From positions 1-60,450 of IMG/VR virus record IMGVR_UViG_3300032254_000005: a stretch of DNA of 60,450 bases, one strand, 5' to 3'. This DNA is from a virus. Taxonomy: Duplodnaviria > Caudoviricetes. How positions within the stretch are numbered: the stretch's first letter is position 1; the number at the start of each line of letters is the position of its first letter. Made by a program: the position numbers and the translations under genes. Shown here piece by piece: positions 5,389 through 57,369 of the stretch. The notes under the pieces were generated by a model. The model ran no database searches. It saw only the letters and a list, made by a program, of their open reading frames with translations, and was not told the origin of the DNA.

Positions 5389-5397
5389 TCAACAACG

Positions 5398-5419: not shown

Positions 5420-5439
5420 TACTCAAACAGAGGTGTGCC

Positions 5440-7456: not shown

Positions 7457-7836
7457 AAATCACAGTTGATGAAGCGCGGGAATACCTGCGCCACAAGTCG
7501 CAGCAGATAATGGGTGCGACGCCTGAAAACCTGCCCTCAGACGGGGTTAAATATTACGCGCATGGGCCGGTTTGTGGAATGTTTCATCGCACGTTCTGGC
7601 CGGGCGTTTGGATGGCGCATTACGCGGTAAAGCCAGAGGGTTGGGGGTTTCTAACAACCCCGGCGCGGGCCGTTTTGAATGAATTTTGGGAGGCCGAAGG
7701 GCCTGAACGTATCATCGGGTGGACGCCCGAAAGCAACCGTGCAGCGATGGCATTCGCGCGCCGCCTTGGCTTTGTCGAGGATGGCCGGATGCCCCTGCCA
7801 GGTGGTGCAATCATCATGCAAGGGTGGGCGAAGTAA
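7453..7836 (+). CDS. GNAT-fold virion assembly protein (P22 gp14-like)
   Basis: N.AA..FA.RLGF..DG GNAT motif; synteny. Confidence 0.75.
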   Translation: MKITVDEAREYLRHKSQQIMGATPENLPSDGVKYYAHGPVCGMFHRTFWPGVWMAHYAVKPEGWGFLTTPARAVLNEFWEAEGPERIIGWTPESNRAAMAFARRLGFVEDGRMPLPGGAIIMQGWAK

Positions 7837-8720: not shown

Positions 8721-8721
8721 T

Positions 8722-13228: not shown

Positions 13229-13255
13229 TCCGACGCATACCCAAACCAACCGACG

Positions 13256-13278
13256 CCGCCCCAATGGGCGGTTTTTTT
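13256..13278 (+). terminator. Rho-independent terminator
   Basis: ccgccc-caat-gggcgg followed by T7. Confidence 0.8.
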
Positions 13279-13291
13279 ATGGGAAACCCTC

Positions 13292-14359: not shown

Positions 14360-14376
14360 ATAACAAGGATACCGCC

Positions 14377-16305
14377 ATGGGTCTTATTCAGCAGCGCGAA
14401 ACGTGGTCAGCCACGCGCAAGAAAATCAACCAGACCAACCGCATCACATATGCAGAGTTTATTGCAAACACTGATTTCACATATACCGCCGGTAGTGTTG
14501 GTTCAGTCACGGCTGGGGATATATTCAGGCTTGCGGATGGGTCATCTTGGGAAGTTGCCGCATCTGGCGCAAGCGATCAGCATCTGACGGTCAACGGCGT
14601 CAAATGGTATGAGGCGGGCCTAAATTTCAGCACACGCGCCCGCATGGTTGCGGCCAAGGCACGGATGGACGCAGCGGGCGAGACCGTAGCAGATGGAGTA
14701 ATATGGACGGCTACGGGCTTCCGATATAGAGCATCCGCTGGGGCAACGACGATCAGCGACATGGCTGGCTGGCTGGCGGTGGCACCGGTCTATCTTGAAC
14801 ACTACGGCGTTGTAACATCGGCCTCTGCGGCTGGGGCGTCTACGGATTACTCCACTGAATTGCAAGCCGCGTTGGATGCCACGTCCGGCGATCTGCATTG
14901 CACGGGATGGGCATATACTTCGAGTGGTCTTTCGTGGCCAGATTATTGCGGCTTTAAGATCGTAGGGGATATAGAGTCGGGTGGCATCGTTACTGACAGC
15001 GCAATCGGCACAGCAACCAACCTCGTGGATTTCGGAACCGGTCTTGGTCCGTCGATTGATAGTCTGCACCTGTGGTTCAGGCAAGCAGCCGGTATCACCC
15101 TGCGGGCGCAATTGTATGACCATCTACCTCTGGTATCCTTCGATGACGCATCGCGCGGCAACATTCGCCACCTGCGCATAAGCCAGGCATCAAAAGGTAT
15201 CACGGCTCAAGATGGCGTTGGTGGCTCAAATCCCGGCGGCTGGAAAGTCCAAGTTGCAGAAATCGGAGCGTTTGAATCGCCGTTTGTGACGGATGGCGGG
15301 CTGGACTTCATCAAGATCGACAATGTTCACATCTGGCCATTTGGGATTTCATCTGACGCTGATCTTATGGCGATTTGGTCTGACGGTGCAGCGACTGGCA
15401 GCCAGATTATTTCCGCCGATGGCTTAATGATCGACACGTTTTCAACATTCAAAACGCCTGTTGAAGTTGGCGAAGCAGCAAGCGCAACTATCTTGCCGTT
15501 TATTCTTGGACTGCAACTTGACGGTGACGCATCACGGCTGATCTTCAAGGGTGGGCGAAGTGTTATCAGCGCACTTTATTCCACAAAGAATACCCCATCA
15601 GCCACGACAATCGTTGTGGAGGGAGGGACGCACCATCTGAATATGCCGCACCTTATCGGCGGTGAGGACAACATGATTGAAGTTCAGAGCGGGGCAGAAC
15701 TCAACGTAAATGGCGGGTACTTGCGCCAGCATCTGAGTGCCAATAAGCGCGGGGGCGTGGTCAAGTCTGGCGGCAAGCTGCGCTTCAAGGGGGCGCATTT
15801 CGATTTCCCGACCGGCGCTGGCACCGTGCCATTTGTCGAACAGGAATCGGGCGGCATTCTGGTTGTCGATGGCTGCTCTGTTATCCTTGGAAACGCCACG
15901 CCTCGGTCTGAGGTTGTTAAATTCAACAGCGATGTGGTCGGCAACTATGTGGATATTGACCAGCTTAAGCCGCATGGGGTGACTTATCCAGCCAACAGCT
16001 TGCAAGGCATATATCGGCGTCAAGGTGGCGTTCTTGGCGCAACCCCCGCGATCACCGGAAATGTAGACGGCATAGAAACCGGAACGATCCATTACACAGG
16101 CGACATCTCGGAAGCGACCGCTGTTTCGTGGAATTTGCCAGCTTTGGGTGGCACCGATACGCGCGCGTGGGTTTGCCACACATACGGCCAAGCCGCTCGG
16201 ACGGTTCAGCAGGCGACGGAGATATTGGGTGTAGGCACTACGCGAGGGCGCACGTTCATACGTGTCAGGCAGGCGTCCACTTGGTATTCGTGGGTGGAAC
16301 TGTGA
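14377..16305 (+). CDS. Tailspike / receptor-binding protein 1 (beta-helix-like)
   Basis: AAGGA RBS; beta-rich repeats; core shared with 49324..51984; C-terminal RTFIRV...W.SW motif. Confidence 0.8.
   Translation: MGLIQQRETWSATRKKINQTNRITYAEFIANTDFTYTAGSVGSVTAGDIFRLADGSSWEVAASGASDQHLTVNGVKWYEAGLNFSTRARMVAAKARMDAAGETVADGVIWTATGFRYRASAGATTISDMAGWLAVAPVYLEHYGVVTSASAAGASTDYSTELQAALDATSGDLHCTGWAYTSSGLSWPDYCGFKIVGDIESGGIVTDSAIGTATNLVDFGTGLGPSIDSLHLWFRQAAGITLRAQLYDHLPLVSFDDASRGNIRHLRISQASKGITAQDGVGGSNPGGWKVQVAEIGAFESPFVTDGGLDFIKIDNVHIWPFGISSDADLMAIWSDGAATGSQIISADGLMIDTFSTFKTPVEVGEAASATILPFILGLQLDGDASRLIFKGGRSVISALYSTKNTPSATTIVVEGGTHHLNMPHLIGGEDNMIEVQSGAELNVNGGYLRQHLSANKRGGVVKSGGKLRFKGAHFDFPTGAGTVPFVEQESGGILVVDGCSVILGNATPRSEVVKFNSDVVGNYVDIDQLKPHGVTYPANSLQGIYRRQGGVLGATPAITGNVDGIETGTIHYTGDISEATAVSWNLPALGGTDTRAWVCHTYGQAARTVQQATEILGVGTTRGRTFIRVRQASTWYSWVEL
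14596..15950 (+). repeat. Long direct repeat, copy 1 (tailspike core)
   Basis: Matches 50035-51389 at a constant offset of 35,439; identical by eye over 14677-15128, diverging towards the 3' end. Confidence 0.97.
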
Positions 16306-16327
16306 TGCCCGTCCATACCCAAGGAAA

Positions 16328-16377
16328 AGCGGGGGCGTCGTGATACCTCTTCGCAAAACCGCCGAAATGTTCATGGC
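16328..16377 (+). repeat. 50-bp direct repeat, copy 1
   Basis: agcgggggcgtcgtgatacctcttcgcaaaaccgccgaaatgttcatggc; 47/50 identical to 52021-52070. Confidence 0.95.
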
Positions 16378-16411
16378 CCTTTTTTTGGGGTGGAAAGGCA
16401 TAAAGCAATGA
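16340..16411 (+). pseudogene. 5' remnant of the membrane-protein gene at 52033
   Basis: VIPLRKTAEMFMAL vs MIPLRKTAEIIMAL; its stop overlaps the amidase ATG (ATGA). Confidence 0.7.
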
Positions 16412-17253
16412 AGCTTGCAATTGTAATAGGGCACAATAGCGCCAGTCAGGGCGCGGTGCGACAGGACACCGGCGAAAGTGAATTCGTTTGGAATGGGCGG
16501 CTAGCACGGCGCATAGAGCGCCTGGCGGGCGACTATGGCATCCAGGTGCGCACGTTCTTCCGCACGCCGGGCGGCGGATACTCGACCGAGATCAGGCGCG
16601 TCTATGCCGAGGTGGACGCCTGGGGCGCGGATGCGAGTGTTGAGCTGCACTTTAACGGTGCAAGCTCGGCCGAAGCGACCGGCACCGAAACCCTATCGAG
16701 CGGCACCGCGTTGTCCCTTCGCCTGGCCGAAAGCGTGCAACGCGAGATGGTGCTGGCGTTGGGCCTTCGGGATCGCGGGATCAAGACGCGCTCCAGCTCG
16801 GATAGAGGCGGCATGTCGCTGATCTCCGGCCGGGCTCCGGCGATCCTGGTCGAGCCCTTCTTCGGCAGCTCGCCGGTGGGCAACCGGGCAACCGACGAGG
16901 AGACGGAACAGGAGCGCCTGGCGGATGCGATCCTGCGCGGCACGGCCGAGGCGTTCCAGAGCTTTCCGCGCTCGACCCTGACCGGAAGCCGGACGATCCG
17001 CGCGGCCGAGACGCAGCGCACAGCCCAGGCGGTGCAGGGCCAGGCGGGCATTGCCGCCGGTGTCGCCGCTGCCGCGACCCAGGCGCGCGAACAGATCGAG
17101 GCGATCCCGGCCGTGGGTGGCCTGGCCGACTGGCTTCCCTGGGTGGCGCTGGGCCTGATCGGGGTAGTGCTGGCCGCGACCGTGGTGCAGCGCGTCATGT
17201 CCGACCGGATCGAGGAGGCTCGGGTTGACGATCACGAACGGGGCATCCGGTGA
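16408..17253 (+). CDS. Endolysin, N-acetylmuramoyl-L-alanine amidase (Amidase_3) with C-terminal TM helix
   Basis: IVIGH, E, SVELHFN, ILVEPFF zinc motifs; hydrophobic WLPWVALGLIGVVLAA. Confidence 0.9.
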   Translation: MKLAIVIGHNSASQGAVRQDTGESEFVWNGRLARRIERLAGDYGIQVRTFFRTPGGGYSTEIRRVYAEVDAWGADASVELHFNGASSAEATGTETLSSGTALSLRLAESVQREMVLALGLRDRGIKTRSSSDRGGMSLISGRAPAILVEPFFGSSPVGNRATDEETEQERLADAILRGTAEAFQSFPRSTLTGSRTIRAAETQRTAQAVQGQAGIAAGVAAAATQAREQIEAIPAVGGLADWLPWVALGLIGVVLAATVVQRVMSDRIEEARVDDHERGIR

Positions 17254-17468
17254 TCTGGGGCTGGATGCGCAAGCTCTGGCCGTTGATCTTGGGGGCTATG
17301 GGCATCGCTGCCCTGATGCTGACCGGGCGGCGCAATGGGCGACTTGAAGAACGAGTGGATCGCGCCCAAGCGCGCGACGAGGTAAAGGAAAGGATGCGGG
17401 ATGCGGTGGCAAACACTAGGACTGACCGGGATGGTGTTGTTGAGCGGTTGCGTGGCGGCCGTTTCTAA
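17250..17468 (+). CDS. Putative i-spanin (Rz-like)
   Basis: N-terminal TM then charged helix; overlaps a lipoprotein gene. Confidence 0.6.
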   Translation: MIWGWMRKLWPLILGAMGIAALMLTGRRNGRLEERVDRAQARDEVKERMRDAVANTRTDRDGVVERLRGGRF

Positions 17469-36638: not shown

Positions 36639-37277
36639 ATGACCTACAGCAAAGTGGATGTTGCATCGCAAGCGCTGGCTCGCCTGGGCGAACCGGCGAT
36701 TTCTTCGTTTGAGGAGGACAGCGACGCAGCCGAGAAGGTTAACCAGCTCTACGAACCGACGATACTCCAGCTCCTCGGCTCGCACGACTGGAGCTTTGCC
36801 ACGCGGCGCAAGGTTCTGCCTGACGATGCAGCGGGCTTGCCTCTCAACGAATGGAAGCGCGCCTTTCTCCTGCCGACGCTGCGCACGGATCGCGTGGGCA
36901 AGCCTCTGTCAGTTTTCAACTCGACGCAGGTTCGCGCGCCCCAAGTGTTCGATTACGAGACACAAGAGAAATGGATTTTCTCTAATTATGACCAGGTGGT
37001 GATCGAATACATCTGGCGCGCTCCTGAAAGCCAATGGCCTGGTTGCTTCCAAACGCTCGCAATCGAGGCTGTCGCCGCAACCCTGGCGCTGCCTATCACC
37101 GAGAACGCGAGCAAGGAACAAATGCACCGGCAAATCGCCTATGGCAACCCGAGCGAGTTAGGGCGTGGCGGGCTATTCCGCACCGCGACCGAGGCCGACG
37201 CCACCGGCGATCCGACGCGATCACTCCTGGACGATCACGATCCGATCTGGGGCGCGCGCTTTGGAGGGTATCGGTAA
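36639..37277 (+). CDS. Tail tubular protein A (adaptor)
   Basis: AL..LG...I.SF.E, H.WSFA..R..L, F.LP. Confidence 0.85.
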   Translation: MTYSKVDVASQALARLGEPAISSFEEDSDAAEKVNQLYEPTILQLLGSHDWSFATRRKVLPDDAAGLPLNEWKRAFLLPTLRTDRVGKPLSVFNSTQVRAPQVFDYETQEKWIFSNYDQVVIEYIWRAPESQWPGCFQTLAIEAVAATLALPITENASKEQMHRQIAYGNPSELGRGGLFRTATEADATGDPTRSLLDDHDPIWGARFGGYR

Positions 37278-40200
37278 TGCCGACGAGCCGATACATTCAG
37301 ACCAGCCTTTCGGCCGGGGAGTTCGACCCGCTCCTCTGGAGCCGCGAGGACGTGTCGTTCTTCTACAACTCGGCCAGGATCATCGAAAACGCCGTGCCGC
37401 TGCCCCAGGGCGGGGCCAAGCGCCGCGAGGGCTGGCGATATCGTGCGCTCCAGCGCGGCCCGATCTCCGAGATCGACCTGTCCGGCGCGACCGTCACCGG
37501 GATCAACGGCGGCACCATCGGCAACCTTACGGACAGCGACGAGACGACGCTTTTCCAGACCGGATTGAGCAAGGCGATCAGTGGCGTCACGAACGCCGAT
37601 CCGGCCGTGGTGACAGCCATCGCTCACGGCTATTCGACCGGAGATCGCGTACGGATCGACGCGGTTGAGGGTATGGGCGCTCCCAGCGGCACCACCGCGT
37701 CGATTACAAATGCGACCCAAGCGAACCCCTGCGTTATCACGGCGGCAGGGCATGGATTTTCGTCCGGCAACACTGTCGAAATTACCGGCGTGTCTGGTAT
37801 GACGGAGCTGAATAACGATACCTATACAATGACGGTGTTGACCAGTGACACGTTTTCTCTGGACGGCACCGACAGCACAGGCTTCACGGCATACTCAACC
37901 GGAGGCACGGCTGAGCAAATCCTGGCAACCTCGATCAACGGCCACCAGGGCGCGATCACGGTGCTGACGGCCGACACCTTTGAGCTGGATGGTTTCGATA
38001 GCTCGGCGCTGGGCCTCTATGTCTCGGGTGGCACGGCCGTGAAGGGCATAGGTGCCGCGACCGCATACGAGGTGCTGCGCCTCGATCTCGGATCGGCACA
38101 AGCGGTTTCGCTTATGGACATGCGCGATCTGCGCGTAGTGGAATTTCCGGCTGACGTGACCTCGGCCGATCTAACCTTGCAGCACAGCTCGGATGGATCA
38201 AGCTGGACGGATGCGGCCACGTTTGCCGCGGGCAACGTGGCCTATGATCGGCGGTTCGCGGCCGCACCTGATCAGCTTCTCGGAACGGCGCGCTACTGGC
38301 GTGCAATCGTTGACAACCCATCGGCTGTCGATCTCAAGGGCGCGACCGTCGATCTGTCTCAAGTCGAGATGTATCTGGAGGCCGGATATAGCAGCGGTGC
38401 GGCAGTCGGCCAGCTCTCGATCCACCGCCTGACCGCGACGATCCAAGACGAGTATATCGTGGTGCTGACTGCCGGGTGCTGCGATGTGTTTCGGGGCACC
38501 GACGGGGCATGGGTTGCCAGTGCCGCGATCCCGCACACCGACGCAGAGGTGGCCGAGGTCAAGAGCGCGCCGAACCTGGATACGCTGATACTCTACCAGA
38601 ACGATCAACCGCCGTGGGTAGTGCAGCGCCTCGACAGCGACACTGACTGGCGATCTAATGCGCTGGTATTCGACACCATCACCGAATTCTCCTTCGACAG
38701 CGGCAACGTCGGCGGCGGCGAGAATGAAATCCAGTTCCTGCGCTTTGACGACATATCGAGTGGACACAAGCTCTTGGTCGAATACAACGGTGAGGCCAGC
38801 GACGAGATCACATGGACCAACTCAACATCGACCAACACGGCCAACCTGGAGGCGGCAATCGAGGGCCTGACCGATATCACGTCGGTGACGGTGCGTGTGA
38901 ACGAGGGCTCCGGCGCGAACGCGGAATTTGAGGTCGAGTTTGCGGGCAATGATGGCAAAAAACCTTGGCCGATCTTGGTGATCGACATTCTGACCGGCGA
39001 CGGCACGGTGGTGCTATCCCGCAAGCAGTTTGGCAAAAAGGACTTTGACGCGCTATGGAGCGCCACGCGCGGCTATCCAAGCTGCGGCAACTTCTACCAG
39101 GGTAGGCACTGGATGGGAGGCTTCAAGGCACGCCCCGATATGCTGGTGGGAAGCCGAGCCGGTGCGCTGTTTGACTTCAAAGAGGATGCGGACCCGGTGG
39201 CAGCATCGCCTATCGTCGTTGCGCCCAACATTGACGATCAGGTAACGATCCAGAACATCTACCCAGGGCGGCACCTCCAGATTTTTACCAGCTCGGCCGA
39301 GCTTTATGTGCCGGACGAGCCGATTACCATCGACAACATTGCGCTCAAGGTGACGAGCCGCCACGGATCGAGCCCAGAGGTCAAGCCGGTGGACGTGCAA
39401 GGCGGCACAATGTTCGTGGATCGCAACGGCCGGGCGCTGCGCGAATACCTGTTCACCGACACCGAGCAAAGCTATTCGGCAGAGCCGGTGTCGCTCCTGG
39501 CCGGGCATCTTATGTCCTCGCCTCGATCACTGATGCTGCGCCGCGCGCGCGACGTGGACGAGCCCACACTCCTCTTGGCGTCGAACACCGGCACCGACCG
39601 CAACGGCGACGAGGTGCCAGCGGCCATGATCGTGATCGACCGCGCCCAGCAGGTGACTGGCTTTTTCCGCGTCAAAACCCAGGGCAAGCCTCTGGAGTTT
39701 GCCACGACACAAGGGGGCGAGGCGTTCGCGGTGGTCGAGCGCGACTTGGCTGGGGTGAAGTGGAATTTCATGGAGCAGTTCGATGATGCGTTCATGTCGG
39801 ATTGCAGCGTTTCGATCTCGGGCTCTGGCTCGACCATAGACGTGTCTGCCTATCCCTGGTTGGAGGGGCAGGAGGTCGAGGTGCATGGCGACGGCTTGCC
39901 GCTCGGTGCCTTCATCGTGGCCTCTGGCTCCGTGGACCTGGGAACGGCGACCTATGCCAGCTCGGCCGAGGTGGGTTTGCGCCAGGTGCCGCGCATCGTG
40001 CTGCATCCCTACAAGGGCAAGGGCGATCTCTCCCCGACCATGCAGAACATGCGCGTGTTCCGTGCCCTGATCCAGCTCGAACGCACCGGCGCGGTAGCGA
40101 TCACCGGGCATGACGGGGGCAGACCGCGCCCGGTGTCGCTCCAGAATTACGATACCGGGCTGATGGACCCAACGCTGGAGGAGGTTCTTTTCACAGGGCC

Positions 40201-40312
40201 AAAGCGCGTTGGCGGTTTAGGCCGCTGGCAGAAGGAGCCGACGGTGGAAATCACCCAGATTGAGCCTATGCCGTTCCTCCTGCGGTCGTTAACTTATGAT
40301 ATCCGATTTTAG
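37277..40312 (+). CDS. Tail tubular protein B (nozzle) with discoidin and FCCH insertions
   Basis: QT...AGE..P.L..R.D, QGG..RR.G, WS..RGYP....FYQGR, L.IFT...E; TAATG start. Confidence 0.88.
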   Translation: MPTSRYIQTSLSAGEFDPLLWSREDVSFFYNSARIIENAVPLPQGGAKRREGWRYRALQRGPISEIDLSGATVTGINGGTIGNLTDSDETTLFQTGLSKAISGVTNADPAVVTAIAHGYSTGDRVRIDAVEGMGAPSGTTASITNATQANPCVITAAGHGFSSGNTVEITGVSGMTELNNDTYTMTVLTSDTFSLDGTDSTGFTAYSTGGTAEQILATSINGHQGAITVLTADTFELDGFDSSALGLYVSGGTAVKGIGAATAYEVLRLDLGSAQAVSLMDMRDLRVVEFPADVTSADLTLQHSSDGSSWTDAATFAAGNVAYDRRFAAAPDQLLGTARYWRAIVDNPSAVDLKGATVDLSQVEMYLEAGYSSGAAVGQLSIHRLTATIQDEYIVVLTAGCCDVFRGTDGAWVASAAIPHTDAEVAEVKSAPNLDTLILYQNDQPPWVVQRLDSDTDWRSNALVFDTITEFSFDSGNVGGGENEIQFLRFDDISSGHKLLVEYNGEASDEITWTNSTSTNTANLEAAIEGLTDITSVTVRVNEGSGANAEFEVEFAGNDGKKPWPILVIDILTGDGTVVLSRKQFGKKDFDALWSATRGYPSCGNFYQGRHWMGGFKARPDMLVGSRAGALFDFKEDADPVAASPIVVAPNIDDQVTIQNIYPGRHLQIFTSSAELYVPDEPITIDNIALKVTSRHGSSPEVKPVDVQGGTMFVDRNGRALREYLFTDTEQSYSAEPVSLLAGHLMSSPRSLMLRRARDVDEPTLLLASNTGTDRNGDEVPAAMIVIDRAQQVTGFFRVKTQGKPLEFATTQGGEAFAVVERDLAGVKWNFMEQFDDAFMSDCSVSISGSGSTIDVSAYPWLEGQEVEVHGDGLPLGAFIVASGSVDLGTATYASSAEVGLRQVPRIVLHPYKGKGDLSPTMQNMRVFRALIQLERTGAVAITGHDGGRPRPVSLQNYDTGLMDPTLEEVLFTGPKRVGGLGRWQKEPTVEITQIEPMPFLLRSLTYDIRF

Positions 40313-40321
40313 GAGGCAGGC

Positions 40322-40879
40322 ATGGCAACAGTTTTCATGGCAATCGGGACGGCTGTATCCAGCGCCGCCGCTTCCGTCGGGACGCTTTTCGCGGGGGCCG
40401 GTGGGGCAGGAGCTGCGGCTGGTGCAAGCGCCGCAGCCGCAGGCTCTGGTGTCGTCACGCTATCACAGGTATTGAGCGCGGGCTCCGCTTTGGCGGCAAT
40501 CGGGCAGGGCGTGGCCGCAAGCCGGGCGGCAAAGGACCAGGCGGCGTTCGCAAGAACGCAGGGGCTCCAAGAGCAAGCCCAAGGCGCGGCTCAGGCGCGT
40601 GACCTTGCGCGGGAATACGCCGAGTTGACCGGCGAACAAAAGGTGATCCAGCTCGCCAATGGACTTGATATCGGGATTGGCACGCCGGTGAACGTGGCCG
40701 AAAGCACCAAGCGCCTGGCCGAGCGAAACCTGGATGTGACCAGGAGCAACGCTGACAACCGCGCCGCAATGTCCCGCCTTCGCGCGCGGGGCCTCATGTC
40801 CGAGGCGCGATCCTCGATGCTGGCGGGCTTTGGCCGCGCGGCTCAGATCGGCGTCGATGCGTATCAACTGACGGGGTAA
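40322..40879 (+). CDS. Internal virion protein (small)
   Basis: AGGAGG RBS; A/G-rich N-terminus; synteny. Confidence 0.7.
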   Translation: MATVFMAIGTAVSSAAASVGTLFAGAGGAGAAAGASAAAAGSGVVTLSQVLSAGSALAAIGQGVAASRAAKDQAAFARTQGLQEQAQGAAQARDLAREYAELTGEQKVIQLANGLDIGIGTPVNVAESTKRLAERNLDVTRSNADNRAAMSRLRARGLMSEARSSMLAGFGRAAQIGVDAYQLTG

Positions 40880-40882: not shown

Positions 40883-43486
40883 ATGCCTTCAATTCGCCGC
40901 TACGGCCCCGCCCTCGTTACTCCCCAGGTCTCACCTCGGCCGGAGCTCGGACGCGGGCGTGAGAAAATGTTCGCCGCTTTTCAAGAGACATTCACTGCGG
41001 CGCAAAGTTTCATCCGGCCTGCCGTCGTACAGGTCCAGACTGCGCGAGGTGAGCAAGAGGCGGTTGAGACGCTTCAAAATGCTGGCCCTTTTCGGCAGGG
41101 GCGCACCAGCGCGCCCGGCGATGCCTCGGCAGCAGAACGAGACGAGGAGGAGCTTGCCAGGATCAATGGCAGCAGCTTCGAGCCGCGCTTGCCCTACACA
41201 GTCAGATCGGCAGCTTTCAACGCCTCTGCGGACAGGATTATTTCGGCGCGCGCGACTGAGGCTTTGGAGGCAGGGTTTCAACAGGCTGTCAGGGATGCAA
41301 ATGGAAACCTAGGCGCGCTTCGACAGAACGTCGATGCGATGCAGGCAGACCTGATAGGCCAAATCCCCGAGAACATGCCCGGAATTGCCACGCAACTGCA
41401 AATTGGCGTGGAGCGAGGGCGTGGCGTGGCGGAAAGAGCCGTCATTCGCGCGGCTCAGGCGGCAGCTATCGCGCGCGACCGAGAGGCCGCGAGAACCACC
41501 GCCGAAGCAGCAAGATCAGAAGCCGAAAGGCTGGCTATCACCGGCGCGACGGCCGACGAGCTGGCCGAATACATGACCCAAACGGCAGAGGCATTGGTGC
41601 GGTTCGGGCCTCGGGATGCGTTTTCAATCAATGGACAGGAATATCCTGCTGACCCGTCGCGCGCGGGCCTGGTTTCGGCTGAAAACATAGAGGCCAACAT
41701 TCAGGAGATCGCAGACGACGCTCGGCTGATTATGTTTGAAGCCGACTTCATAAATTCGGAAGCACCTGGGCAGTATATGGAGGAGTTCCGGCAACAGGTA
41801 TTTTCCGGCAATTCGCCTTTTTCTCCATCCGATAGTCTGGGGCTTTTGCGCACGTTCGAGGCGCGCGCGCGCGCGGCAGAGACACGGATCGAAACTGCGG
41901 CGGCGGCGGCACGGTCTGGCTTATTGCAAGAAAGCTCGGACACGATCAACAGTTATGTGTCCATGACCGAGGCGGGCGTGCCGGTCGCTATTCCTATGGA
42001 CGAGCGCCTGGGCATCCTGTCCGATCTGGCGCAATACCCAGAAGATCGGCAGGCTGCTCTAACCGCATTTTCTGTTGCAGATGCAATGGTAGAAACGAGC
42101 GGCATGAGCGGGCCTGAATTGATCGAGTATGTTGGCAGCGTTCGCTCCGGCATGGCGTCAGCAGCGGCTGATGGCATCCTCGACCTGGAGGGGGCGGCAA
42201 TTATCGAGCAACTGTCGGGCCGCGTCACGCAAGTGCAGGATGCAATCACGGCTGAATTGGTCGGGCTCCCCCTGGTTGAGCAACTCACATCTCGCGGTGG
42301 CCTTGCAGAAGATGTGGACTATGATGCGTTGCGCGAACGGGCATCCGGGAACCAAGACGTTCTCGACCAGATTACGGAGATGGAGGCTTTCCACCGCGAC
42401 GCGCAAGAAATGTCCAATATGAGCGCCACAGAGCGCGAGGCGTTGCTGGAACGCGGTCGCCAGCTTCTGCGAGGGCAAGCTGCCGTAGGCGAAACTTACG
42501 GCGCTGGCCAGGTTATGACCGGCCGCATTATGGACCGGCTGGAGGAGTGGTCGAATAGACAGCAGGAAATGGCGGCAAGCGACCCGGTAGCCTTTGCATC
42601 GTCACGAGGCATTTCTTTGCCGGGGTTCGACGCTGCCGAAACTATGGCCGACGTTGCTGGGGTGATTGCGGAACGGATTAGCTTGGTGGCCCCGGCGGCT
42701 CTGCGCGAAGGCGCTGCAAACGTAGTGCCGCTCACCCAAGCCGAGCTGGATCAGATTTCCGAGGTGTTTCAGAACAGCTCGCGCGGGCAGCGGATGGCGT
42801 TCGTCGGCGCAGTGGCCGAAATGGGCGAGGATCAGGCGATGGCGGTGTTCTCGCGGATCGGTCAGGCCGAGCCGGTGATCTACGCCGCCGGAGCGGTCTA
42901 TTCAATGGGAAACCAACAGGCGGCGAGCGTGATCTTGCGCGGTGCCGTGGATACGCGCCTGGACGGCGGCAGCTCCACCGACCTGGCAATGGCGCGCGAG
43001 GTGGCCTTGGGGCCGCTCCTGGAGGCCGACATGATCGCGCCCGAGGGCATCCGCGACCTGGACACCACGGCGCTGGCCTACGCGCGCGGCCTTGCAATGG
43101 CCGAGGGTGGCCGGGCAATCGAGACGGTCGACCTAGAGACGGGCTATCGCATGGCGCTGGGCGAGCAAGCCGACGGCACCGGCGGTATGGCGGAAACCAG
43201 GTATGGAACCACGCTCCTGCCTCCTGCCTGGGATCGTCGCCGCATCAACCGGGCAATCGGCAGACTGACCGTCGAGACGCTGACGCAGCTTGCGCGCGGT
43301 CTAGTGCTGGATCGCTCCGGGCGTCCGTTTTCGGCCCGCTCTTTGGAGCGATCCATCGAAGGACTGCGGCCGTCGCCGGATGATCCCTATGTCCTGGTGC
43401 CAACCGACGCCGAGGGCAATGTGTTCCTTACCGACGACGGAGACCAGCGCGGCGTCCTGATCTTCGATCTGCGGGAGTTAGACTGA
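40883..43486 (+). CDS. Internal virion protein
   Basis: 867 aa helical protein; DP..FA motif; synteny. Confidence 0.7.
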   Translation: MPSIRRYGPALVTPQVSPRPELGRGREKMFAAFQETFTAAQSFIRPAVVQVQTARGEQEAVETLQNAGPFRQGRTSAPGDASAAERDEEELARINGSSFEPRLPYTVRSAAFNASADRIISARATEALEAGFQQAVRDANGNLGALRQNVDAMQADLIGQIPENMPGIATQLQIGVERGRGVAERAVIRAAQAAAIARDREAARTTAEAARSEAERLAITGATADELAEYMTQTAEALVRFGPRDAFSINGQEYPADPSRAGLVSAENIEANIQEIADDARLIMFEADFINSEAPGQYMEEFRQQVFSGNSPFSPSDSLGLLRTFEARARAAETRIETAAAAARSGLLQESSDTINSYVSMTEAGVPVAIPMDERLGILSDLAQYPEDRQAALTAFSVADAMVETSGMSGPELIEYVGSVRSGMASAAADGILDLEGAAIIEQLSGRVTQVQDAITAELVGLPLVEQLTSRGGLAEDVDYDALRERASGNQDVLDQITEMEAFHRDAQEMSNMSATEREALLERGRQLLRGQAAVGETYGAGQVMTGRIMDRLEEWSNRQQEMAASDPVAFASSRGISLPGFDAAETMADVAGVIAERISLVAPAALREGAANVVPLTQAELDQISEVFQNSSRGQRMAFVGAVAEMGEDQAMAVFSRIGQAEPVIYAAGAVYSMGNQQAASVILRGAVDTRLDGGSSTDLAMAREVALGPLLEADMIAPEGIRDLDTTALAYARGLAMAEGGRAIETVDLETGYRMALGEQADGTGGMAETRYGTTLLPPAWDRRRINRAIGRLTVETLTQLARGLVLDRSGRPFSARSLERSIEGLRPSPDDPYVLVPTDAEGNVFLTDDGDQRGVLIFDLRELD

Positions 43487-46400
43487 TGGCAAGACTGGTT
43501 CAGCTCCAGCCGATTGATCCGCGCGCTACGGCAGGTGAGCGCGCTACCTTTGGCGATGCGGTGTCGAGCGGCTTTACCAGCTCCTTCACGATGGGCTCCA
43601 TTGCCGAGAACCGGCGAAACGCCGAGGTCTATGGCGGCTGGCGTCAAGTGTTTGATCGCACAGTGCAAGGCTATATTGAGCTACCGCCCGATCTCGGCCG
43701 TGCTGTAGCCGAGCAAGGCTTCGCCCCTGACGAGGAGACACTCGGACAGCTCATGGAATGGGCGCAAGAGGCATCGACGCAATACGACTTCGAGATCACG
43801 CCGGACATGGACCCTGCGGCCGTCATGCAGCGGCGCGAGGAGATTTACGCGCGGGATGCGGAGATCGTGGAGCGCGAGCAAGAGGTCTTGAGCCGGGCCA
43901 GCCCGTTTTCGCGCAATGTCGGTGGGCTGATCGGCGGCGTCGGTGCTGAGTTCCTGGACCCGATCAACATCGCCACGCTTCCGGCCGGCGCGACCGCCCG
44001 CGTCGGGCTTCTCGGCACGGTGCTGATCGAGGCAGGGATCAACGCTGCAATCGAGGCGGTAGATACGCCGAACCGCAACGCCATTGCCGAGAGGCTGGGT
44101 CAGGAGGGTAATTCCGTCCTGGAGAACGCCGCTCTCGGCGCGCTGTTCGGCGGTGCTTTCGCCGGTGTCATCAAGGGCGCTGGACTAGGCGTGCGACAAC
44201 TCGGCAGGATCGGCCGCCTCATTCCAGACAGACGCGCGCTGATCGACGTGGCCGAGGCGACGGGCGATCCAGAGGCACAGCTCATTGCACAGCAGCTCAG
44301 GCGCGATCTGGAGGACGAGGAGGCGGCAACAAGCGGCAATGATGGGTCAGAGGCGCGGGAACACCTTGACCGCGCCCAGGAGGCCGCACAGACGGCGCAC
44401 GAGGGTGGCGTGCCAGACATGCCAGATCGACCGACCTTTGCCCAGCCGCGTGGTTCCATCATCAATGGCGAGATTGAGGAGGTAAACCCGCGCGATCTCT
44501 TGGTGCATCCGGACGTGTTTCAGTTCCGCTCGAACGTCGTGGCCGAGGGCGGGCAAACCCAGCGACTTCTAGATGTGACAGAATGGTATCCAGAACGTGC
44601 CGGGATTGTGGTCGTTTACGAATACACGGACGGATCGCGGGCTATCGCGGACGGGCACCAGCGCACCGGCCTTGCGACCCGCATCATGGATCAAACGGGG
44701 CAAGAGATCACAATGGCCGCACGGGTGTTCCGCGAGGCCGATGGATTTTCGCCGGAGGATATCCGCGTGCTGGCGGCGCTCAAGAACATCGCTGAGGCCA
44801 GCGACGGCATGTCAACGGCGATGGCACGAGACGCGGCTCGTGTGCTGCGCGTGCGGCCGGATGCGATCACGCAACTGCCAGCCGGCCCAGGTATCGCGCG
44901 AGCGCAATCACTGGCACGGCTGTCTGACGAGGCGTTCGATATGTTCATCAATCAGGTGGTGCCAGAGCGTTTCGCGGAGCTTGTGGGCAGGATGGTGGAT
45001 AACCCTGACATGCACGCGGCGATGGTTCAGCTTCTCAAGCGCGCCGGGCCCGACACCACGGCCCAAGCTGAAAGCATTTTGTCACAAGCCCTACAAGCGC
45101 CCGTGTCGCGCGAGGTCACAGCCGATCTGTTCGGTGAACAAGAGATTGTGGAAAGTCTATATCTGGAGCGCGCAAAGGTGCTGGAGCGCGCTATGCGGAT
45201 CATGCGCGATGATCGCAGCGTGTTCCGCACCTTGGACGAGCGCGCGGATCGCATCCAGGGAACCGGCGGGAACCGCCTGGACACGGCCACGAACAAGCAG
45301 ACCAGGCAGCAAGTGGAACAAGCCCTGGCAGCGGTGCAGAAGCTGGCGCACCGGGCCGGGCCGATATCGGAGGCGTTGAACGATGGCGCGAAAGTCTACA
45401 AGGAAAACGGTCGTCTCAAAGACGCGGCACAGCGGGTTGCAGATGCTGTCCGACAAGAGGTTGAGCGAAATGGCCTCTCTGGGGCAAGAGCTGGCGATGT
45501 TGGACGTGATGCAGAACCTGCGCGTGCGAGCGCAGCGGCACCTGATCCCGCCCTCGAAGGCTTCTCGGACCCGGTAAACGGGGCAGGCATCCGCGCACAG
45601 ATCGCAAACACCAGGATTGAACCAGCGGCCGAGCCTAAGATCGAGCGCCTGCCCGACCTGGACCCTGCCGAGGCGGCGCAGCTCGAAGCCGGATTGAAAG
45701 CCGCCCAGGCGATCCGCGACGTGGACGATCTCATGGAGCGCGGCGCGCGCAACCATGTGGAGCTGACGCGCGAGATCGAGGTAGCGGCGCGGGATGCTGG
45801 CGTGACGGCCAGGGCGATACCGCTCAAGGGGCGAGAGCGCACCGAGCAAAAGGTGCGGGACAAGTATGCGGGCGACGTGAACCGCGTCACCGACGTGGCG
45901 CGCGGTGGTGTCGATGCACCGACGCCGGAAGCGGCCGAGGAGTTCGTGGCGATCCTGGCGCGCCGGTATCGGGTTCTCGATGAAGGCTGGAACGTGGTCG
46001 AGGGCGGATACTTCGACCGCAAGCTGACGGTGGTTTTCGATGATGGGCAGCTCGGGGAAGTTCAGCTCTGGGTGCCCGGCATGTTCGAGGTCAAGGAAGC
46101 TCGGGGGCACAAGCTCTATGAAGTCTACCGCGACCTGTCACGGTCGGAGAATGAACGGATGCAGGCGCTGGCCGACATGGAAGCGCTCTATGCGGGCGTG
46201 ATGGACAAGCTGCCGCCGCAATGGCGCTCTATCTTGGGTCAGGAAACGCCGGGCATGGAAGCGCCCAGCCGAGCCACGACGGAGACGAACACCTCCTCGG
46301 ACACCTCGGGCGAGCCTTCATCGGCAAGAACCTCGGACGGCGATACGTCGGACCAAGTGCCGTCGGAGCCAAGCAGCAACATCGAGCCTGGCTCCGGCTC

Positions 46401-46803
46401 CAGCGCTGGGATGGAGCGGTCTACTAGAAAAAATCTCATGGGGGATACCTCCTCTTCCGATGTAAGTAACAATGGTCGGGCTGTCAACACGGAGCGCACC
46501 AGCGCTGGCGAGCAAAGCCTGTTCGACGAGATCGAGCCTATCACGGAACGCACCAGGCTTGACCAGCGGGCATCGCAGCCGCTCGGCCGGGGTGGTGGCG
46601 CGGCTGATGATACAGAGATCGGCGGGCTGTTCGACCCAAACGATCCCGGCCGGCTCGACCTGTTCGACGCGGTGCCGGTGGACCGTAGGTTCGACGATGA
46701 AGGCAACGAGATTGCCGTGGTGAAATCTCGCGCCGATCTTGCGGCCGAGCTGGATGCTGACGACGAGGCGGTGGCCGTCCTCGACCTCTGCGTGAAAGGG
46801 TAA
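43486..46803 (+). CDS. Polyvalent internal virion protein with ParB-like and RelA/SpoT synthetase-like domains
   Basis: DP.N virion N-terminus; IADGHQR near 44644; LK..ER..QK, TDVARG, GYFD.K, GEVQ, GHKLYE at 45820-46125. Confidence 0.8.
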   Translation: MARLVQLQPIDPRATAGERATFGDAVSSGFTSSFTMGSIAENRRNAEVYGGWRQVFDRTVQGYIELPPDLGRAVAEQGFAPDEETLGQLMEWAQEASTQYDFEITPDMDPAAVMQRREEIYARDAEIVEREQEVLSRASPFSRNVGGLIGGVGAEFLDPINIATLPAGATARVGLLGTVLIEAGINAAIEAVDTPNRNAIAERLGQEGNSVLENAALGALFGGAFAGVIKGAGLGVRQLGRIGRLIPDRRALIDVAEATGDPEAQLIAQQLRRDLEDEEAATSGNDGSEAREHLDRAQEAAQTAHEGGVPDMPDRPTFAQPRGSIINGEIEEVNPRDLLVHPDVFQFRSNVVAEGGQTQRLLDVTEWYPERAGIVVVYEYTDGSRAIADGHQRTGLATRIMDQTGQEITMAARVFREADGFSPEDIRVLAALKNIAEASDGMSTAMARDAARVLRVRPDAITQLPAGPGIARAQSLARLSDEAFDMFINQVVPERFAELVGRMVDNPDMHAAMVQLLKRAGPDTTAQAESILSQALQAPVSREVTADLFGEQEIVESLYLERAKVLERAMRIMRDDRSVFRTLDERADRIQGTGGNRLDTATNKQTRQQVEQALAAVQKLAHRAGPISEALNDGAKVYKENGRLKDAAQRVADAVRQEVERNGLSGARAGDVGRDAEPARASAAAPDPALEGFSDPVNGAGIRAQIANTRIEPAAEPKIERLPDLDPAEAAQLEAGLKAAQAIRDVDDLMERGARNHVELTREIEVAARDAGVTARAIPLKGRERTEQKVRDKYAGDVNRVTDVARGGVDAPTPEAAEEFVAILARRYRVLDEGWNVVEGGYFDRKLTVVFDDGQLGEVQLWVPGMFEVKEARGHKLYEVYRDLSRSENERMQALADMEALYAGVMDKLPPQWRSILGQETPGMEAPSRATTETNTSSDTSGEPSSARTSDGDTSDQVPSEPSSNIEPGSGSSAGMERSTRKNLMGDTSSSDVSNNGRAVNTERTSAGEQSLFDEIEPITERTRLDQRASQPLGRGGGAADDTEIGGLFDPNDPGRLDLFDAVPVDRRFDDEGNEIAVVKSRADLAAELDADDEAVAVLDLCVKG
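46239..46439 (-). CDS. Nested antisense 66-aa acidic protein, candidate immunity protein
   Basis: AGGAGGT 7 nt before ATG; promoter-like sequence upstream; stop lies at the end of the RelA/SpoT domain. Confidence 0.7.
   Translation of the reverse strand: MRFFLVDRSIPALEPEPGSMLLLGSDGTWSDVSPSEVLADEGSPEVSEEVFVSVVARLGASMPGVS
46447..46487 (-). promoter_or_regulatory. Internal antisense promoter and RBS
   Basis: TTGACA (46487-46482)-N17-TACATC, then AGGAGGT (46453-46447). Confidence 0.65.
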
Positions 46804-52431: not shown

Positions 52432-52744
52432 TGAATTCGCCGGGTATGGCCCTATCGGTCTAGTCGTGGCTCTCATTATTTTCATGATGCGCGGCGAGAT
52501 CATTGCGACCCTACGCGGTGGAACGACGGAAACAGGCCGCTTGATTGTCGCAATCGACAATAACACGGCTGAGATGTCAAAGATGGTTTCTGCCATTGGC
52601 GAACAGACTAAGCAGTTTGAGAATAACAACCAGTATTTTCAACAGGCCGTCTCCGGCATCCACGATGTCGTTGAGGCGACCGGAAAGACAAGCACTGAAA
52701 TAAACAATCTTAGAATGGATTTGGCCAAGAGAGGTGTTTCGTGA
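52415..52744 (+). CDS. Holin-like single-TM coiled-coil protein
   Basis: GPIGLVVALIIFMM then coiled coil; precedes endolysin. Confidence 0.6.
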   Translation: MEQLINEFAGYGPIGLVVALIIFMMRGEIIATLRGGTTETGRLIVAIDNNTAEMSKMVSAIGEQTKQFENNNQYFQQAVSGIHDVVEATGKTSTEINNLRMDLAKRGVS

Positions 52745-53568
52745 TGGATAAGCAAGCGTTCTACACAAGCCTGCGCCGCCGCAACAGCGGTGTTTTCGGC
52801 ACAAGCCTGTCGCAGAAGCAAGTCGAGGGCATGGAGGCGATCCTTGATGAAGGCGCGCACCTGCCGTTGTCTCATTTGGCCTATGCCCTTGCCACGACAT
52901 ACGGCGAGACCGGCGGACGGATGCAGCCGATTTCCGAAAACATGAATTACACTAGCGCGCGGCGGATCGAACAGGTGTTCTCCAATTCCCGCCGTAAAGG
53001 CATCCCGGGTGACCAGATGGTGCGGAACCCAGAAAAACTGGCAAACACGGTCTATGGCGGCATTCTTGGCAACGGCACCGATAACGGCGATGGCTGGCGG
53101 TTCCGTGGACGGGGGTTTGTTCAGAACACCGGGCGGCTTAATTATGAGAAGGTCCGCGCCTTGACCGGTGTCGATGTGGTCAGCACCCCAGATCTGGCGC
53201 TGCGCATTGATGTTGCAGCCAAGGCGCTCATTGCCGGTATCGAACACGGCATATACACGGGCAAAAAGGCCAGCGACTACCTGCCGGGAGATTACCGCAA
53301 CGCGCGGCGGATCATCAACGGCACATTCGAGGCTGACAAATATGCTGGCTACGCGCGGGCATTCGATGCAGCCCTGACTGAGGCTGGATATCAGGCGCAG
53401 CAAGTCGTGCCAACTTCCCCACCAGCTATGCCGGAAATATACCCAGAACCTGCCCCAACGCGGCCCACACAGCCCATTGATGATGCTTCACGGGCCTCTA
53501 CCAAAAAAAAGCCAGCAACCGGACTGCTGGCGTCGCTCTTGCGCCTGTTTGGCAGCCTGAAAGGATAA
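52741..53568 (+). CDS. Endolysin, glycoside hydrolase family 19
   Basis: AY.LAT...ETG, DGWRFRGRGFVQ.TGR.NY, ARRIING. Confidence 0.9.
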   Translation: MMDKQAFYTSLRRRNSGVFGTSLSQKQVEGMEAILDEGAHLPLSHLAYALATTYGETGGRMQPISENMNYTSARRIEQVFSNSRRKGIPGDQMVRNPEKLANTVYGGILGNGTDNGDGWRFRGRGFVQNTGRLNYEKVRALTGVDVVSTPDLALRIDVAAKALIAGIEHGIYTGKKASDYLPGDYRNARRIINGTFEADKYAGYARAFDAALTEAGYQAQQVVPTSPPAMPEIYPEPAPTRPTQPIDDASRASTKKKPATGLLASLLRLFGSLKG

Positions 53569-56113: not shown

Positions 56114-56341
56114 ATGGCAGATCTCTATCTTACAGGCACAACAGCAGATGGGAAGCGCCTGATGATTGCGCCCATCACGTCTTCCAAACTCGCCAGATGC
56201 CCAGAACCCCCATCCGATACGAGCGGCTACTTTCTCATGGAAGAGCAAGGGAGCGATGCAAATTGCATCGTGAATATTCTCGCGCGAATCTCTGACTCCG
56301 AGGCCGCGTTCCGTCTTGGTCGCTTGTTCTGTATGTCCTAA
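56114..56341 (+). CDS. Hypothetical passenger protein (75 aa)
   Basis: GAGG RBS; fills the gap between two minus-strand genes. Confidence 0.55.
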   Translation: MADLYLTGTTADGKRLMIAPITSSKLARCPEPPSDTSGYFLMEEQGSDANCIVNILARISDSEAAFRLGRLFCMS

Positions 56342-57369
56342 CCCTCGATCAACTTTTGGTCGAACATTGCGGCAATTTGCTCCGCTTCTAGTTTGCCGCC
56401 CTTGAGAACGTTCGCCTTCCCTAGGATGTAGCGTGGGAACTTCGTCGGGAGGTATTCGTTTCTGAACCATCGACGAAAAAGGGGTAGCGCCGCATCCGGG
56501 TAAGCCCACGGAGATTGCGGGTTGCTGGCAGATTGCGGGTAATACGAGGGGTAGTTATGCTCATACTTGATGCGGGCCCCATATTCGTCCTCCAGACTAT
56601 TAGCGGTCCAGAACTTACCCCAAGCCATGCCAACGCTGATGTCCGGCAAAGTTTTGTCGTTGACTGTGAGGTCAGCATTGATGAGGTCAACCGCTAAGCC
56701 CGTGGTTTCGGAAAACAGTATAAAGTATTCGGGTGGGGCGCTATCCTTGAGTATGGATACCCTGTCGTTGAAGTAACGCCACTTGTCCTCTGGTGTATAT
56801 TCCAGTGCTTCATAGATGAATTTTTGAAGGCCGAACCGTGCGAGGTTCCTGTAGTTGGTAACGGCTTCGCCGTGCGGGCTGTTTGCCTCGAACGCGAAAT
56901 ACTCAAGAACGGCCATGCAAACGATATCAGGATAGGCGTAGTGCGTTGAGCCGTCCTTCTGCAATTCCATGTAGAGCGTAGGTTCAAGATATTGGTTCTT
57001 GAAGAGGTATTCTTTCAGAAAGGCATTTCGCCCCTTACCTATCACCTCGTTGTTATATCTTTCTTCCCACTCCTTTGTGATTTCAAATATCGTCTTTCGA
57101 GAAGCGCCCGTTATGCGGGCAAGGCCCATTTGGGTCAGATAGGGCAACCCGTTCTCAAGAACTCCCATCTCGATTCCGTTTACTCGGCGCTCCACTTGAA
57201 TACCAAGGTCCAACGGGATTTGCCGAGGGGGTGCGGGGTAGTCAGGTGAAACAGGCCCTAAGTATTTGAAATTATTACCATCCTTGGGTGCGGGCTTGAC
57301 TATCTTGTCAACCACATCATCAAACGACCCATCCGTAATCGGTTCGATTTTTTCTGGCTTCCTAACCAT
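56338..57369 (-). CDS. bstA: BstA-like abortive-infection protein
   Basis: EMGVL..G.PYL...GLA, AYPD.VCMA.LEY.AFE, PDISVG..W, HNYP..YPQ..SNPQ, YP..AL..FR.W motifs as I recall them for the family. Confidence 0.7.
   Translation of the reverse strand: MVRKPEKIEPITDGSFDDVVDKIVKPAPKDGNNFKYLGPVSPDYPAPPRQIPLDLGIQVERRVNGIEMGVLENGLPYLTQMGLARITGASRKTIFEITKEWEERYNNEVIGKGRNAFLKEYLFKNQYLEPTLYMELQKDGSTHYAYPDIVCMAVLEYFAFEANSPHGEAVTNYRNLARFGLQKFIYEALEYTPEDKWRYFNDRVSILKDSAPPEYFILFSETTGLAVDLINADLTVNDKTLPDISVGMAWGKFWTANSLEDEYGARIKYEHNYPSYYPQSASNPQSPWAYPDAALPLFRRWFRNEYLPTKFPRYILGKANVLKGGKLEAEQIAAMFDQKLIEG

Follow-up and report, generated by a model that had tools for sequence, protein, structure and literature searches.

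The antisense reading frame and its signals

The window analysed here is the whole of the IMG/VR virus record IMGVR_UViG_3300032254_000005, 60450 bases of Caudoviricetes DNA with a G+C content of 54-64%. Its plus strand carries a gene (43486..46803), hereafter the host gene, for a large multidomain protein of 1105 aa, which lies in the internal-virion or ejection-protein block of a podovirus-like structural module. Residues ~725-919 of this host protein (45658..46257, plus strand) match Tas1/Apk-like RelA-SpoT-homologue (RSH) pyrophosphokinase domains in sequence and fold. Directly behind this domain, on the minus strand and wholly inside the host gene, lies the open reading frame (ORF) that is the subject of this study: 66 codons and a TGA stop (46239..46439), encoding a predicted small acidic alpha/beta protein that is our candidate for the immunity protein of the RSH domain.

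An earlier note on this DNA, drawn from its letters and a list of ORFs, had proposed a hidden antisense gene here, with expression signals of its own, as the antitoxin of a toxin domain, and each of the elements that it listed is found in its place. On the minus strand, the -35 element TTGACA (46482..46487) stands 17 nt upstream of the -10 element TACATC (46459..46464), and a Shine-Dalgarno sequence, AGGAGGT (46447..46453), precedes by 7 nt the ATG (46439-46437) of an ORF that runs to its TGA (46241-46239) and whose program translation is the peptide given in that note. The -35 element and the Shine-Dalgarno sequence are conserved in relatives, and the -10 element, weak here, reads TATATT, TATATC or TATACT in them. 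The stop codon falls at the end of the RSH domain, again as claimed, at host residues 918/919, where the AlphaFold2 (AF2) model of the domain loses order: in the 200-residue segment modelled from host residue 725, the last helix ends at residue 194 and the predicted local distance difference test score (pLDDT) is below 50 for residues 196-200. Over the antisense span the host protein is the low-complexity linker that had been described, rich in S/T/D/E/P/G.

The two frames share third codon positions (position 3 of a minus codon is host position 3, and minus position 1 is host position 2), an arrangement that we take to be the one called sas12. The caution that openness alone is weak evidence in such a frame was well placed, since the same frame is open for 227 codons and many long antisense ORFs occur among the 83 ORFs of at least 150 aa in the window. 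Among antisense frames, the one with shared third positions is open by chance more often than any other, which speaks for the alternative that the ORF is not protein-coding and owes its conservation to the host linker or to a nucleic-acid constraint, for instance from an antisense regulatory RNA or a recombination site. The 227-codon long form (P0002) was itself considered as the gene and rejected, as the related locus L005/L015 has a stop upstream of the ATG and minus-changing substitutions resume upstream of the -35 element.

The expression signals are found throughout the relatives. Scanning metagenomes with the aligned RSH domain and linker gave 43 loci, some of them on the same contigs as IMG/VR loci, and the loci hold 21 distinct peptides and 22 distinct upstream regions. 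All 22 upstream sequences follow one pattern, TTGA[CT]N, 17 nt, a TA-rich hexamer (TATATT in four groups), a Shine-Dalgarno sequence and ATG or TTG; the start codon lies 16 or 19 nt after the -10 element and has GGAGG or GAGG 5-11 nt before it in every case. The -35/-10 pair with a spacer of exactly 17 nt was thus present in 22/22 upstream sequences, compared to 1 of 1726 random 70-nt window tiles. At the level of the sequence, the antisense gene therefore has a promoter and a ribosome-binding site of its own. The expectation that gene callers would miss the ORF held in part only, since unnamed 66-aa calls of it exist in public assemblies.

Frame-specific selection and occurrence in relatives

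Because shared third positions defeat the ordinary ratio of nonsynonymous to synonymous rates (dN/dS), each substitution was classed by its effect in both frames, following the logic of dN/dS for overlapping genes. The set consisted of eight sequences, the window and its IMG/VR relatives L013-L019 (L020, a near-duplicate of L014, was left out), compared over codons 2-66; events are minority alleles per column rather than tree-based and may be slightly miscounted, and the controls were counted identically. Changes silent in both frames (SS) numbered 57 at 37.8 sites, changes altering the host protein and silent in the minus frame 15 at 15.3 sites, and changes altering both products 27 at 130.7 sites. 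The remaining class, silent in the host frame and changing the minus product (SN), held a single event at 11.1 sites, where 18.1 were expected (Poisson P = 2.7e-7; Fisher's test on the two mixed classes, P = 6e-7). The SN/SS ratio was accordingly 0.06 in the ORF, compared to 1.08 (range 0.66-1.87) in 32 non-overlapping control windows across three genes, all of which behave neutrally. In sliding windows the dip at the ORF was unique among 68, and the zone without SN changes extends from the stop codon at 46239 to ~46500. A separate set of 13 loci from one or more diverged clades gave an SN/SS of 0.41 in the ORF, the lowest value beside 0.87-1.23 in five control windows. Selection that favours the minus frame, one of the checks that the earlier note had proposed, is thus seen both around the window and in the diverged loci.

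The same counts bear on the non-coding alternative. A constraint on the nucleic acid would lower the doubly silent changes, but their rate is normal over the ORF (1.51 vs 1.65 in controls); a constraint on the host protein would lower the host-changing, minus-silent changes, but these occur at a rate of 0.98 in the ORF vs 0.64 in controls, or 0.65 vs 0.39 of the silent rate, and only the minus-changing substitutions are missing. As the host-changing, minus-silent changes come near the silent rate, the host frame appears close to unconstrained over the ORF. Host codon positions 1 and 2 vary 2:9 within it and 105:56 elsewhere (Fisher P = 0.003), a reversal of the pattern of a normal gene that the minus frame predicts. 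No dip in the host-frame synonymous rate was seen over the ORF, a measure that is uninformative for this pair of frames. Upstream of the ORF, over the promoter and leader (46440-46492), silent-site change is lowered, with an SS rate of 0.67 vs ~1.6 in controls.

The non-coding alternative can also point to the host frame, which is itself conserved, with a ratio of nonsynonymous to synonymous polymorphism (pN/pS) of 0.215, and to the composition of the embedded peptides: Y, H and Q are absent from them (0/1385 residues), an absence that a linker free of Y, C and W would produce just as well. Some family members do contain Y, H or Q, and a reading of this composition as mutual accommodation of the two frames was dropped, because the linker predicts the same. 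The peptide has nevertheless been transferred from start to stop into bacterial genomes that lack the host frame, and it has a confident fold, as described below; we consider a non-coding origin very improbable. The substitution patterns lead us to conclude that purifying selection acts on the protein encoded by the antisense ORF, and with the conserved signals they make 46239-46439, in our judgement, very probably a real protein-coding gene.

The ORF accompanies the RSH domain closely. The peptide was found on the opposite strand, at the same place, in 28/28 loci with 45-98% identity to the domain and linker (one of them, L040, cut by a contig end), and its stop coincides with the end of the RSH domain in all 28. 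The 14 loci at no more than 37% identity gave no peptide match better than E 1.7, and L053, which ends inside the domain, was not judged. Six IMG/VR relatives retain the whole cassette of domain, linker and antisense gene. The peptide was more conserved than the host linker in 19/19 comparisons with sequences that differ from the window, and in the 13 diverged loci it was 53-65% identical while the linker was 37-53% identical. In relatives without the RSH domain a scar of the antisense gene is left (46307..46358, no strand assigned), recovered by blastn at 88-90% over 52 nt in L008-L011; a corresponding scar of 16-21 residues was matched in L021-L024 (peptide residues 23-43 or 28-43). The presence of the 52-nt scar indicates that L008-L011 lost the cassette rather than never having had it. 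The proposal that ORF, ribosome-binding site and promoter go with the RSH domain in homologues thus agrees with the ORF in 28/28 loci, the signals in 22/22 upstream sequences and a scar where the domain is absent.

The peptide belongs to a protein family. A profile search against 1.84 billion representatives gave 25 HMMER matches at E<=1e-3, with 16 at E<=1e-10. Nine members are short ORFs (65-87 aa) whose alignment starts within the first 6 residues, in others the domain forms the C-terminal end of a longer ORF, and five of the weakest matches, long proteins with several short matching stretches, were taken to be low-complexity matches; the named cluster members are all annotated 'hypothetical protein'. 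Against Pfam, the peptide had only a sub-threshold PEP-CTERM match and 10 relatives only sub-threshold matches. NCBIfam and PHROGs returned nothing for the peptide, the ESM Atlas no usable match, and PADLOC none for the peptide; the N-terminal part of the relative P0007 matches pPIWI_RE_Y weakly. IMG/VR scans with the distant members P0022 and P0025 gave no matches.

A scan of one genome per species gave three matches, all in Rhodobacteraceae, one of them a phage-like contig of a metagenome-assembled genome that has an RSH domain. The other two lie in Roseinatronobacter ekhonensis and Palleronia abyssalis, and their nucleotide homology with the phage runs from the ATG to ~25 nt past the stop; since the homology is bounded by ATG and stop, the unit that moved is the minus ORF and not the host linker. 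In Roseinatronobacter the unit forms the C-terminal end of a 232-aa ORF (L070:5503-6201, plus strand) with hydrophobic stretches in its N-terminal part and with an integrase and an AlpA-like gene as neighbours; in Palleronia it ends a 109-aa ORF (L071:5872-6201, plus strand) next to a transposase fragment. Both copies follow an unrelated N-terminal part, and neither genome (0/2) has an RSH match. Among 401 genomes sampled from the family of Roseinatronobacter, two have the peptide, both already among the matches above, and the others searched gave none. Each bacterial copy looks like a candidate orphan immunity gene.

Behind more distant RSH domains, other antisense ORFs occupy the same position. 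A second, conserved type of 67-99 aa directly follows such domains at L057:3549-3782, L058:3489-3707 and L062:3477-3713 (all minus strand) and in 12 IMG/VR loci (L073-L084, around 3001-3300). The enclosing host ORFs are longer than 2000 aa in all loci that no contig end truncates. This second type has a TA-rich -10-like hexamer, GGAGG in most loci and, in the 12 IMG/VR loci, an ATG start (11/12) or GTG (1/12). The second-type peptide out-scores the host frame in 55/66 pairs, which are not independent of one another, and with only three sequences both frames were equal. A third type, of 80 aa, follows an RSH domain at 37% identity (L054:3411-3650, minus strand) and is preceded by TTGTCT-N17-TATATT, GGAGGT, 7 nt and ATG; hhalign of the first peptide family against it gave a probability of 0.3, so that homology is unsupported. 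The proteins hosting these further types range from more than 1000 to more than 2000 aa, and we regard both types as candidates only.

Predicted binding and the immunity reading

The nature of the RSH domain frames what its antisense product could do. Its sole sequence match in the PDB is Tas1 (6ox6_A; E 1.5e-4 with the single sequence, 2.5e-7 with a profile), and the Pfam RelA_SpoT model does not match it at E<=0.1. The AF2 model of the domain has a pLDDT of 91.9, and its best Foldseek match is again 6ox6_A (E 6.7e-8, template-modelling score 0.62-0.64), followed by the exported SAS 8vx3, SAS1, RelP and Rel, with 42 matches at E<=1e-3. By these sequence matches and the predicted fold the domain is Tas1/RelA-SpoT-like, with putative toxicity and pyrophosphokinase activity, for which (p)ppApp, (p)ppGpp or pyrophosphorylated tRNA are possible products; its aligned motifs hold invariant residues. 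It is internal to the host protein, ending at about residue 919 of 1105 with 185 residues after it.

AF2 folds the peptide, from 24 sequences, into four strands and two helices with a pLDDT of 93 and a predicted template-modelling score of 0.80. When the RSH domain (alignment A6) and the peptide (alignment A5) were folded together, the score was 0.89, compared to 0.09 for the best of three controls (0.00-0.09); at least 92% of contacts are shared between runs, and the partner pLDDT is at least 92. The mark used was reached by 58/80 solved complexes and 2/110 mismatched pairs, counts that apply here only roughly, since the alignments were our own. The predicted interface includes RSH residues that are invariant in A6, namely K65, E109, Y118, D120, K122, K146, Y154 and R158 (numbered from host residue 725); D68-A71 are also among the predicted contacts. 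Co-folding of the pair thus supports the suggestion that the two proteins interact, and the peptide is predicted to bind the RSH domain.

Taken with its position, this predicted complex suggests that the antisense product is probably the immunity protein of the RSH domain, and that its reverse complement is read as the host linker. The antisense gene, lying wholly inside the gene of a putative internal-virion protein, would be expressed from its own sigma-70-type promoter and ribosome-binding site, and the host protein would be translated straight across it, the reverse complement supplying a flexible, almost unconstrained linker from the toxin domain to the C-terminal module. The acidic product of 66 residues would most likely bind the nucleotide-binding face of the RSH domain and inactivate it in the virion-producing cell, and perhaps give the same protection in lysogens, in phage-carrying cells or in cells that have the gene alone. 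Its mode of action would be like that of Tis1 and IapK, the immunity proteins of Tas1 and Apk2. On ejection through the tail, the non-covalently bound inhibitor might be left behind, because proteins leaving a podovirus head must pass a narrow channel, and the RSH domain could then become active in the newly infected cell. Binding, on the strength of the model only, neutralisation, the timing of expression and the delivery of the host protein into cells are the steps that we infer. The earlier note's overall reading, a small acidic antitoxin of an RSH toxin, is in this way favoured by selection, signals, linkage, predicted binding and the Tas1/RelA-SpoT-like domain, with toxin and antitoxin activity remaining presumptive.

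Two further explanations accept the gene as real. The product might bind the RSH-like domain as a folding or packaging chaperone, an adaptor or a regulator of the virion protein; the predicted binding and the linkage fit this equally, and full-length Tas1-like effectors are reported, in the accessible text of PMC10083569, to need chaperones for stability. The orphan copies, found in two genomes without an RSH match, nevertheless fit immunity better than a chaperone for an absent client, and the predicted interface lies on invariant residues of the catalytic face rather than on a peripheral surface, so that we think such a role unlikely. Alternatively, the function might be unrelated to the RSH domain, for instance in superinfection exclusion, anti-defence or regulation, the disordered linker simply tolerating the overprinting. 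The peptide has no homology to known immunity proteins, and in two bacterial genomes the unit occurs without an RSH domain, fused to a membrane-anchored N-terminal part, as this explanation would allow; yet the stop lies at the RSH domain end in 28/28 loci, the ORF is lost with the domain, two other unrelated antisense ORF types stand at the same position after distant RSH domains, and the co-fold passes where the controls score 0.00-0.09. An unrelated function is in our view unlikely.

Several points weigh against immunity as the function of the antisense gene. Neither in sequence nor in fold does the peptide resemble Tis1 or any solved protein: a PDB profile search with it gave 0 matches at E<=10, its best Foldseek match in the PDB has an E of 0.94, and no 6ox6 chain is among the matches listed. 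Immunity is for that reason argued from position and the predicted complex, not from homology. The co-fold alignment rows were not paired by genome, and a pass is no demonstration of binding; the evidence from linkage is partly trivial, as the ORF lies physically inside the cassette; and the toxicity and the enzymatic product of the RSH-like domain are putative. As to expression, a generic promoter scan does not call the antisense promoter, whose -10 element TACATC is weak and lacks the final T, no intrinsic terminator was found for the minus transcript, and convergent transcription against the host gene would be costly. Six public RNA runs were found, each with at most 0.12 of the sampled words, and four were compared with the window; they gave only short Logan contigs, 151-378 nt long with 85-99% likeness to it, some of which overlap the ORF, at 46207-46415 (X2), 46285-46554 (X1, probably DNA) and 46380-46553 (X4). 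These are unstranded contigs of relatives and carry neither the start nor the level of a transcript.

Known systems offer partial parallels to this arrangement. The immunity genes of pore-forming colicins lie downstream of the colicin gene, on the opposite strand, and have their own constitutive promoter; the candidate gene described here likewise has its own promoter and runs against the toxin gene, but it does so inside the toxin reading frame. Tas1 (Apk1) and Tis1 form a type VI effector-immunity pair of Pseudomonas aeruginosa (PDB 6ox6), and Tas1 is the best match of the host domain in both sequence and fold. The two systems would share a small protein as inhibitor, here a candidate, and differ in the presumed carrier (a phage particle here, the type VI secretion system with PAAR there) and in the architecture of the immunity gene, the 66-aa peptide being unrelated to Tis1 by fold search.

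A closer phage parallel is found among the MuF polymorphic toxins of temperate phages, for which an Apk2 (p)ppApp-synthetase domain with IapK/Tis1-like and Aph1 immunity genes is described in the accessible text of PMC5576092, PMC10083569 and PMC12226406. According to the latter two sources, in the portions available, small proteins of the IapK and Tis1 type neutralise Apk2 and Tas1 by occluding the acceptor-nucleotide site, and the injection of such phage toxins is stated to be still unknown. As in MuF/Apk2, a phage virion-associated protein carries a toxin domain of RSH fold that resembles Tas1, a small partner protein is believed to bind and obstruct the active site (here by prediction), and the cargo varies between relatives (here RSH, zeta toxin or none). 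Unlike in MuF/Apk2, the toxin domain is internal and not C-terminal, Pfam finds no MuF domain, and the immunity candidate is antisense inside the toxin frame instead of a downstream ORF on the same strand; an Aph1-like hydrolase was looked for through PHROG scans only.

Antisense embedded overlapping genes have been reported in E. coli and Pseudomonas aeruginosa (PMC9927249, PMC8850804, 10.1101/2020.11.18.388249, PMC7457138). Like those genes, as far as they are described in the accessible text of these sources, the present ORF lies fully within a gene of the opposite strand, has its own expression signals and is under purifying selection; unlike them, it would have a clear functional tie to the enclosing product (predicted), it is deeply conserved, persisting at 45% host-protein identity, it occurs as a free unit in other genomes, and the small gene appears to be the constrained one, with the host frame as passenger. 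The podovirus ejection proteins (T7 gp14-gp16) are expelled into the host at infection according to the accessible text of PMC8605104 and PMC8954989, and like them the host gene product is a large protein at the same genome position, in the internal-virion block; there is no evidence of homology of the host gene to gp15 or gp16, and no RSH cargo is described for such proteins in those portions of the two sources. Our search of the accessible literature, the text of PMC5576092, PMC12226406 and PMC3482391 included, found no description of an immunity gene lying antisense inside its own toxin gene. The architecture therefore appears to be new, and its function is predicted.

Embedded antisense genes are rarely accepted in bacteria and phages, since the evidence for them is usually weak. 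Here, the comparative evidence is unusually clean, the functional rationale is clear, and the inner gene also exists as a free-standing copy in other genomes. If correct, the immunity reading would describe a new toxin-immunity architecture, in which the immunity gene lies within the toxin gene and the two are inseparable by recombination, and it would explain how a virion protein can contain an internal toxin domain and yet spare the cell in which the virion is built. A further implication would be that standard annotation and searches for a downstream small ORF miss a class of immunity genes. The system could serve as a test bed for the effect of injected alarmone synthetases during infection, a question named as open in the accessible text of PMC10083569.

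The cargo slot, the host gene and its virion module

The RSH domain and its linker, with the antisense gene and promoter, fill a variable cargo slot of the host protein (residues 727-1041; 45664..46608, plus strand), which was delimited by tblastn of the host protein against relatives. In L008-L012 the slot is empty and residue ~726 is joined directly to ~1042; in L007 it holds a Pfam Zeta_toxin domain (E 6.7e-17); and in L018 it holds the RSH domain, the antisense gene and a GNAT-like module of borderline Pfam score, which on the minus strand begins just upstream of the -35 box. The conserved carrier thus has one slot that is empty or contains Zeta_toxin, RSH, or RSH with the GNAT-like module. 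Inside the GNAT-like module of L018, considered as the site of a further antisense gene, only one 100-aa ORF of poor appearance was seen, and the ORFs antisense to the zeta-toxin insert of L007 were judged by eye only.

The slot is followed by a conserved C-terminal module (residues 1042-1105; 46609..46800, plus strand), with tblastn identities of 83-84% in L008-L011 and 62% in L012 and L007. Because relatives without the cassette have this module too, translation in the host frame has to continue across the antisense gene, and this frame is open in all relatives and continues into the module. In L005/L015 the host-gene homologue has no stop codon, and one open frame continues into the homologue of the virion structural protein.

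The earlier note had further proposed that toxin, antitoxin and promoter form one in-frame cassette able to move between virion proteins. Of this, the exchange at one site is seen, as the contents of the slot vary within one orthologous protein, and the movement between carriers is not, the same cassette having been seen in no different virion protein among the loci compared. We tentatively propose that a toxin domain with a reversed immunity gene can be inserted into the middle of an essential virion protein as an inseparable in-frame cassette ('overprinted immunity'), perhaps having arisen repeatedly, and that bacteria may capture the immunity ORF alone as orphan protection from an injected toxin; we hold this possible, if somewhat doubtful.

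Just upstream of the slot, an island of low silent diversity (45366-45563, host residues ~630-700) has a synonymous polymorphism (pS) of 0.04-0.14 and an SS rate of 0.37, and is possibly a flank at which recombination exchanges cassettes. The low silent diversity also raised the possibility of a second hidden gene (45381-45620), which was rejected, as no alternative frame beats the host frame (ratio 0.42). In P0006, a metagenome protein of 334 aa, a NUDIX domain (PF00293) is followed by a relative of the RSH-like domain at 45% identity. The protein stops directly after this second domain, without a linker and hence without room for an antisense gene, and its hydrolase, fused in cis, might be another way to tame the same toxin.

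The gene order between 24 and 53 kb is podovirus-like: terminase, portal-like protein, major head protein, tail protein, 'internal virion protein', an 867-aa ORF, the host gene, 'virion structural protein' and tail protein. Upstream of the host gene lie the tail protein (37034-40312), the 'internal virion protein' phrog_418 (40322-40879) and then the 867-aa ORF; downstream, on the same strand, lies the 'virion structural protein' phrog_684 of 837 aa. From this order, the host gene product is inferred to be a virion protein that is internal or ejected. Its residues 327-686 match the PHROGs phrog_10691 and part of phrog_21, and a weak match to phrog_7625, 'head morphogenesis' (E 0.004), covers the RSH region. 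Pfam finds no family in the whole host protein or in residues 1-724, and no N-terminal MuF domain (SPP1 gp7-like trafficking).

The record contains two complete structural modules. That at 1-17 kb (1-17300) comprises portal phrog_156, scaffold, major head phrog_283, head closure, a DNA-ejection protein and an endolysin; that at 24-53 kb (24000-53600) comprises terminase, portal-like phrog_332, major head phrog_3437, tail and internal virion proteins and an endolysin (52741-53568). The contigs of relatives are ~36 kb long, the size of the 24-60 kb part of the record, and with the two modules this suggests that the record may be two phages, joined or in tandem. No integrase was found among the 35 window ORFs scanned with PHROGs. 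A 343-aa protein encoded on the minus strand (56338-57369) matches phrog_6287, 'BstA abortive infection system', with an E of 8e-101, and a prophage defence gene of the BstA type hints at a temperate lifestyle.

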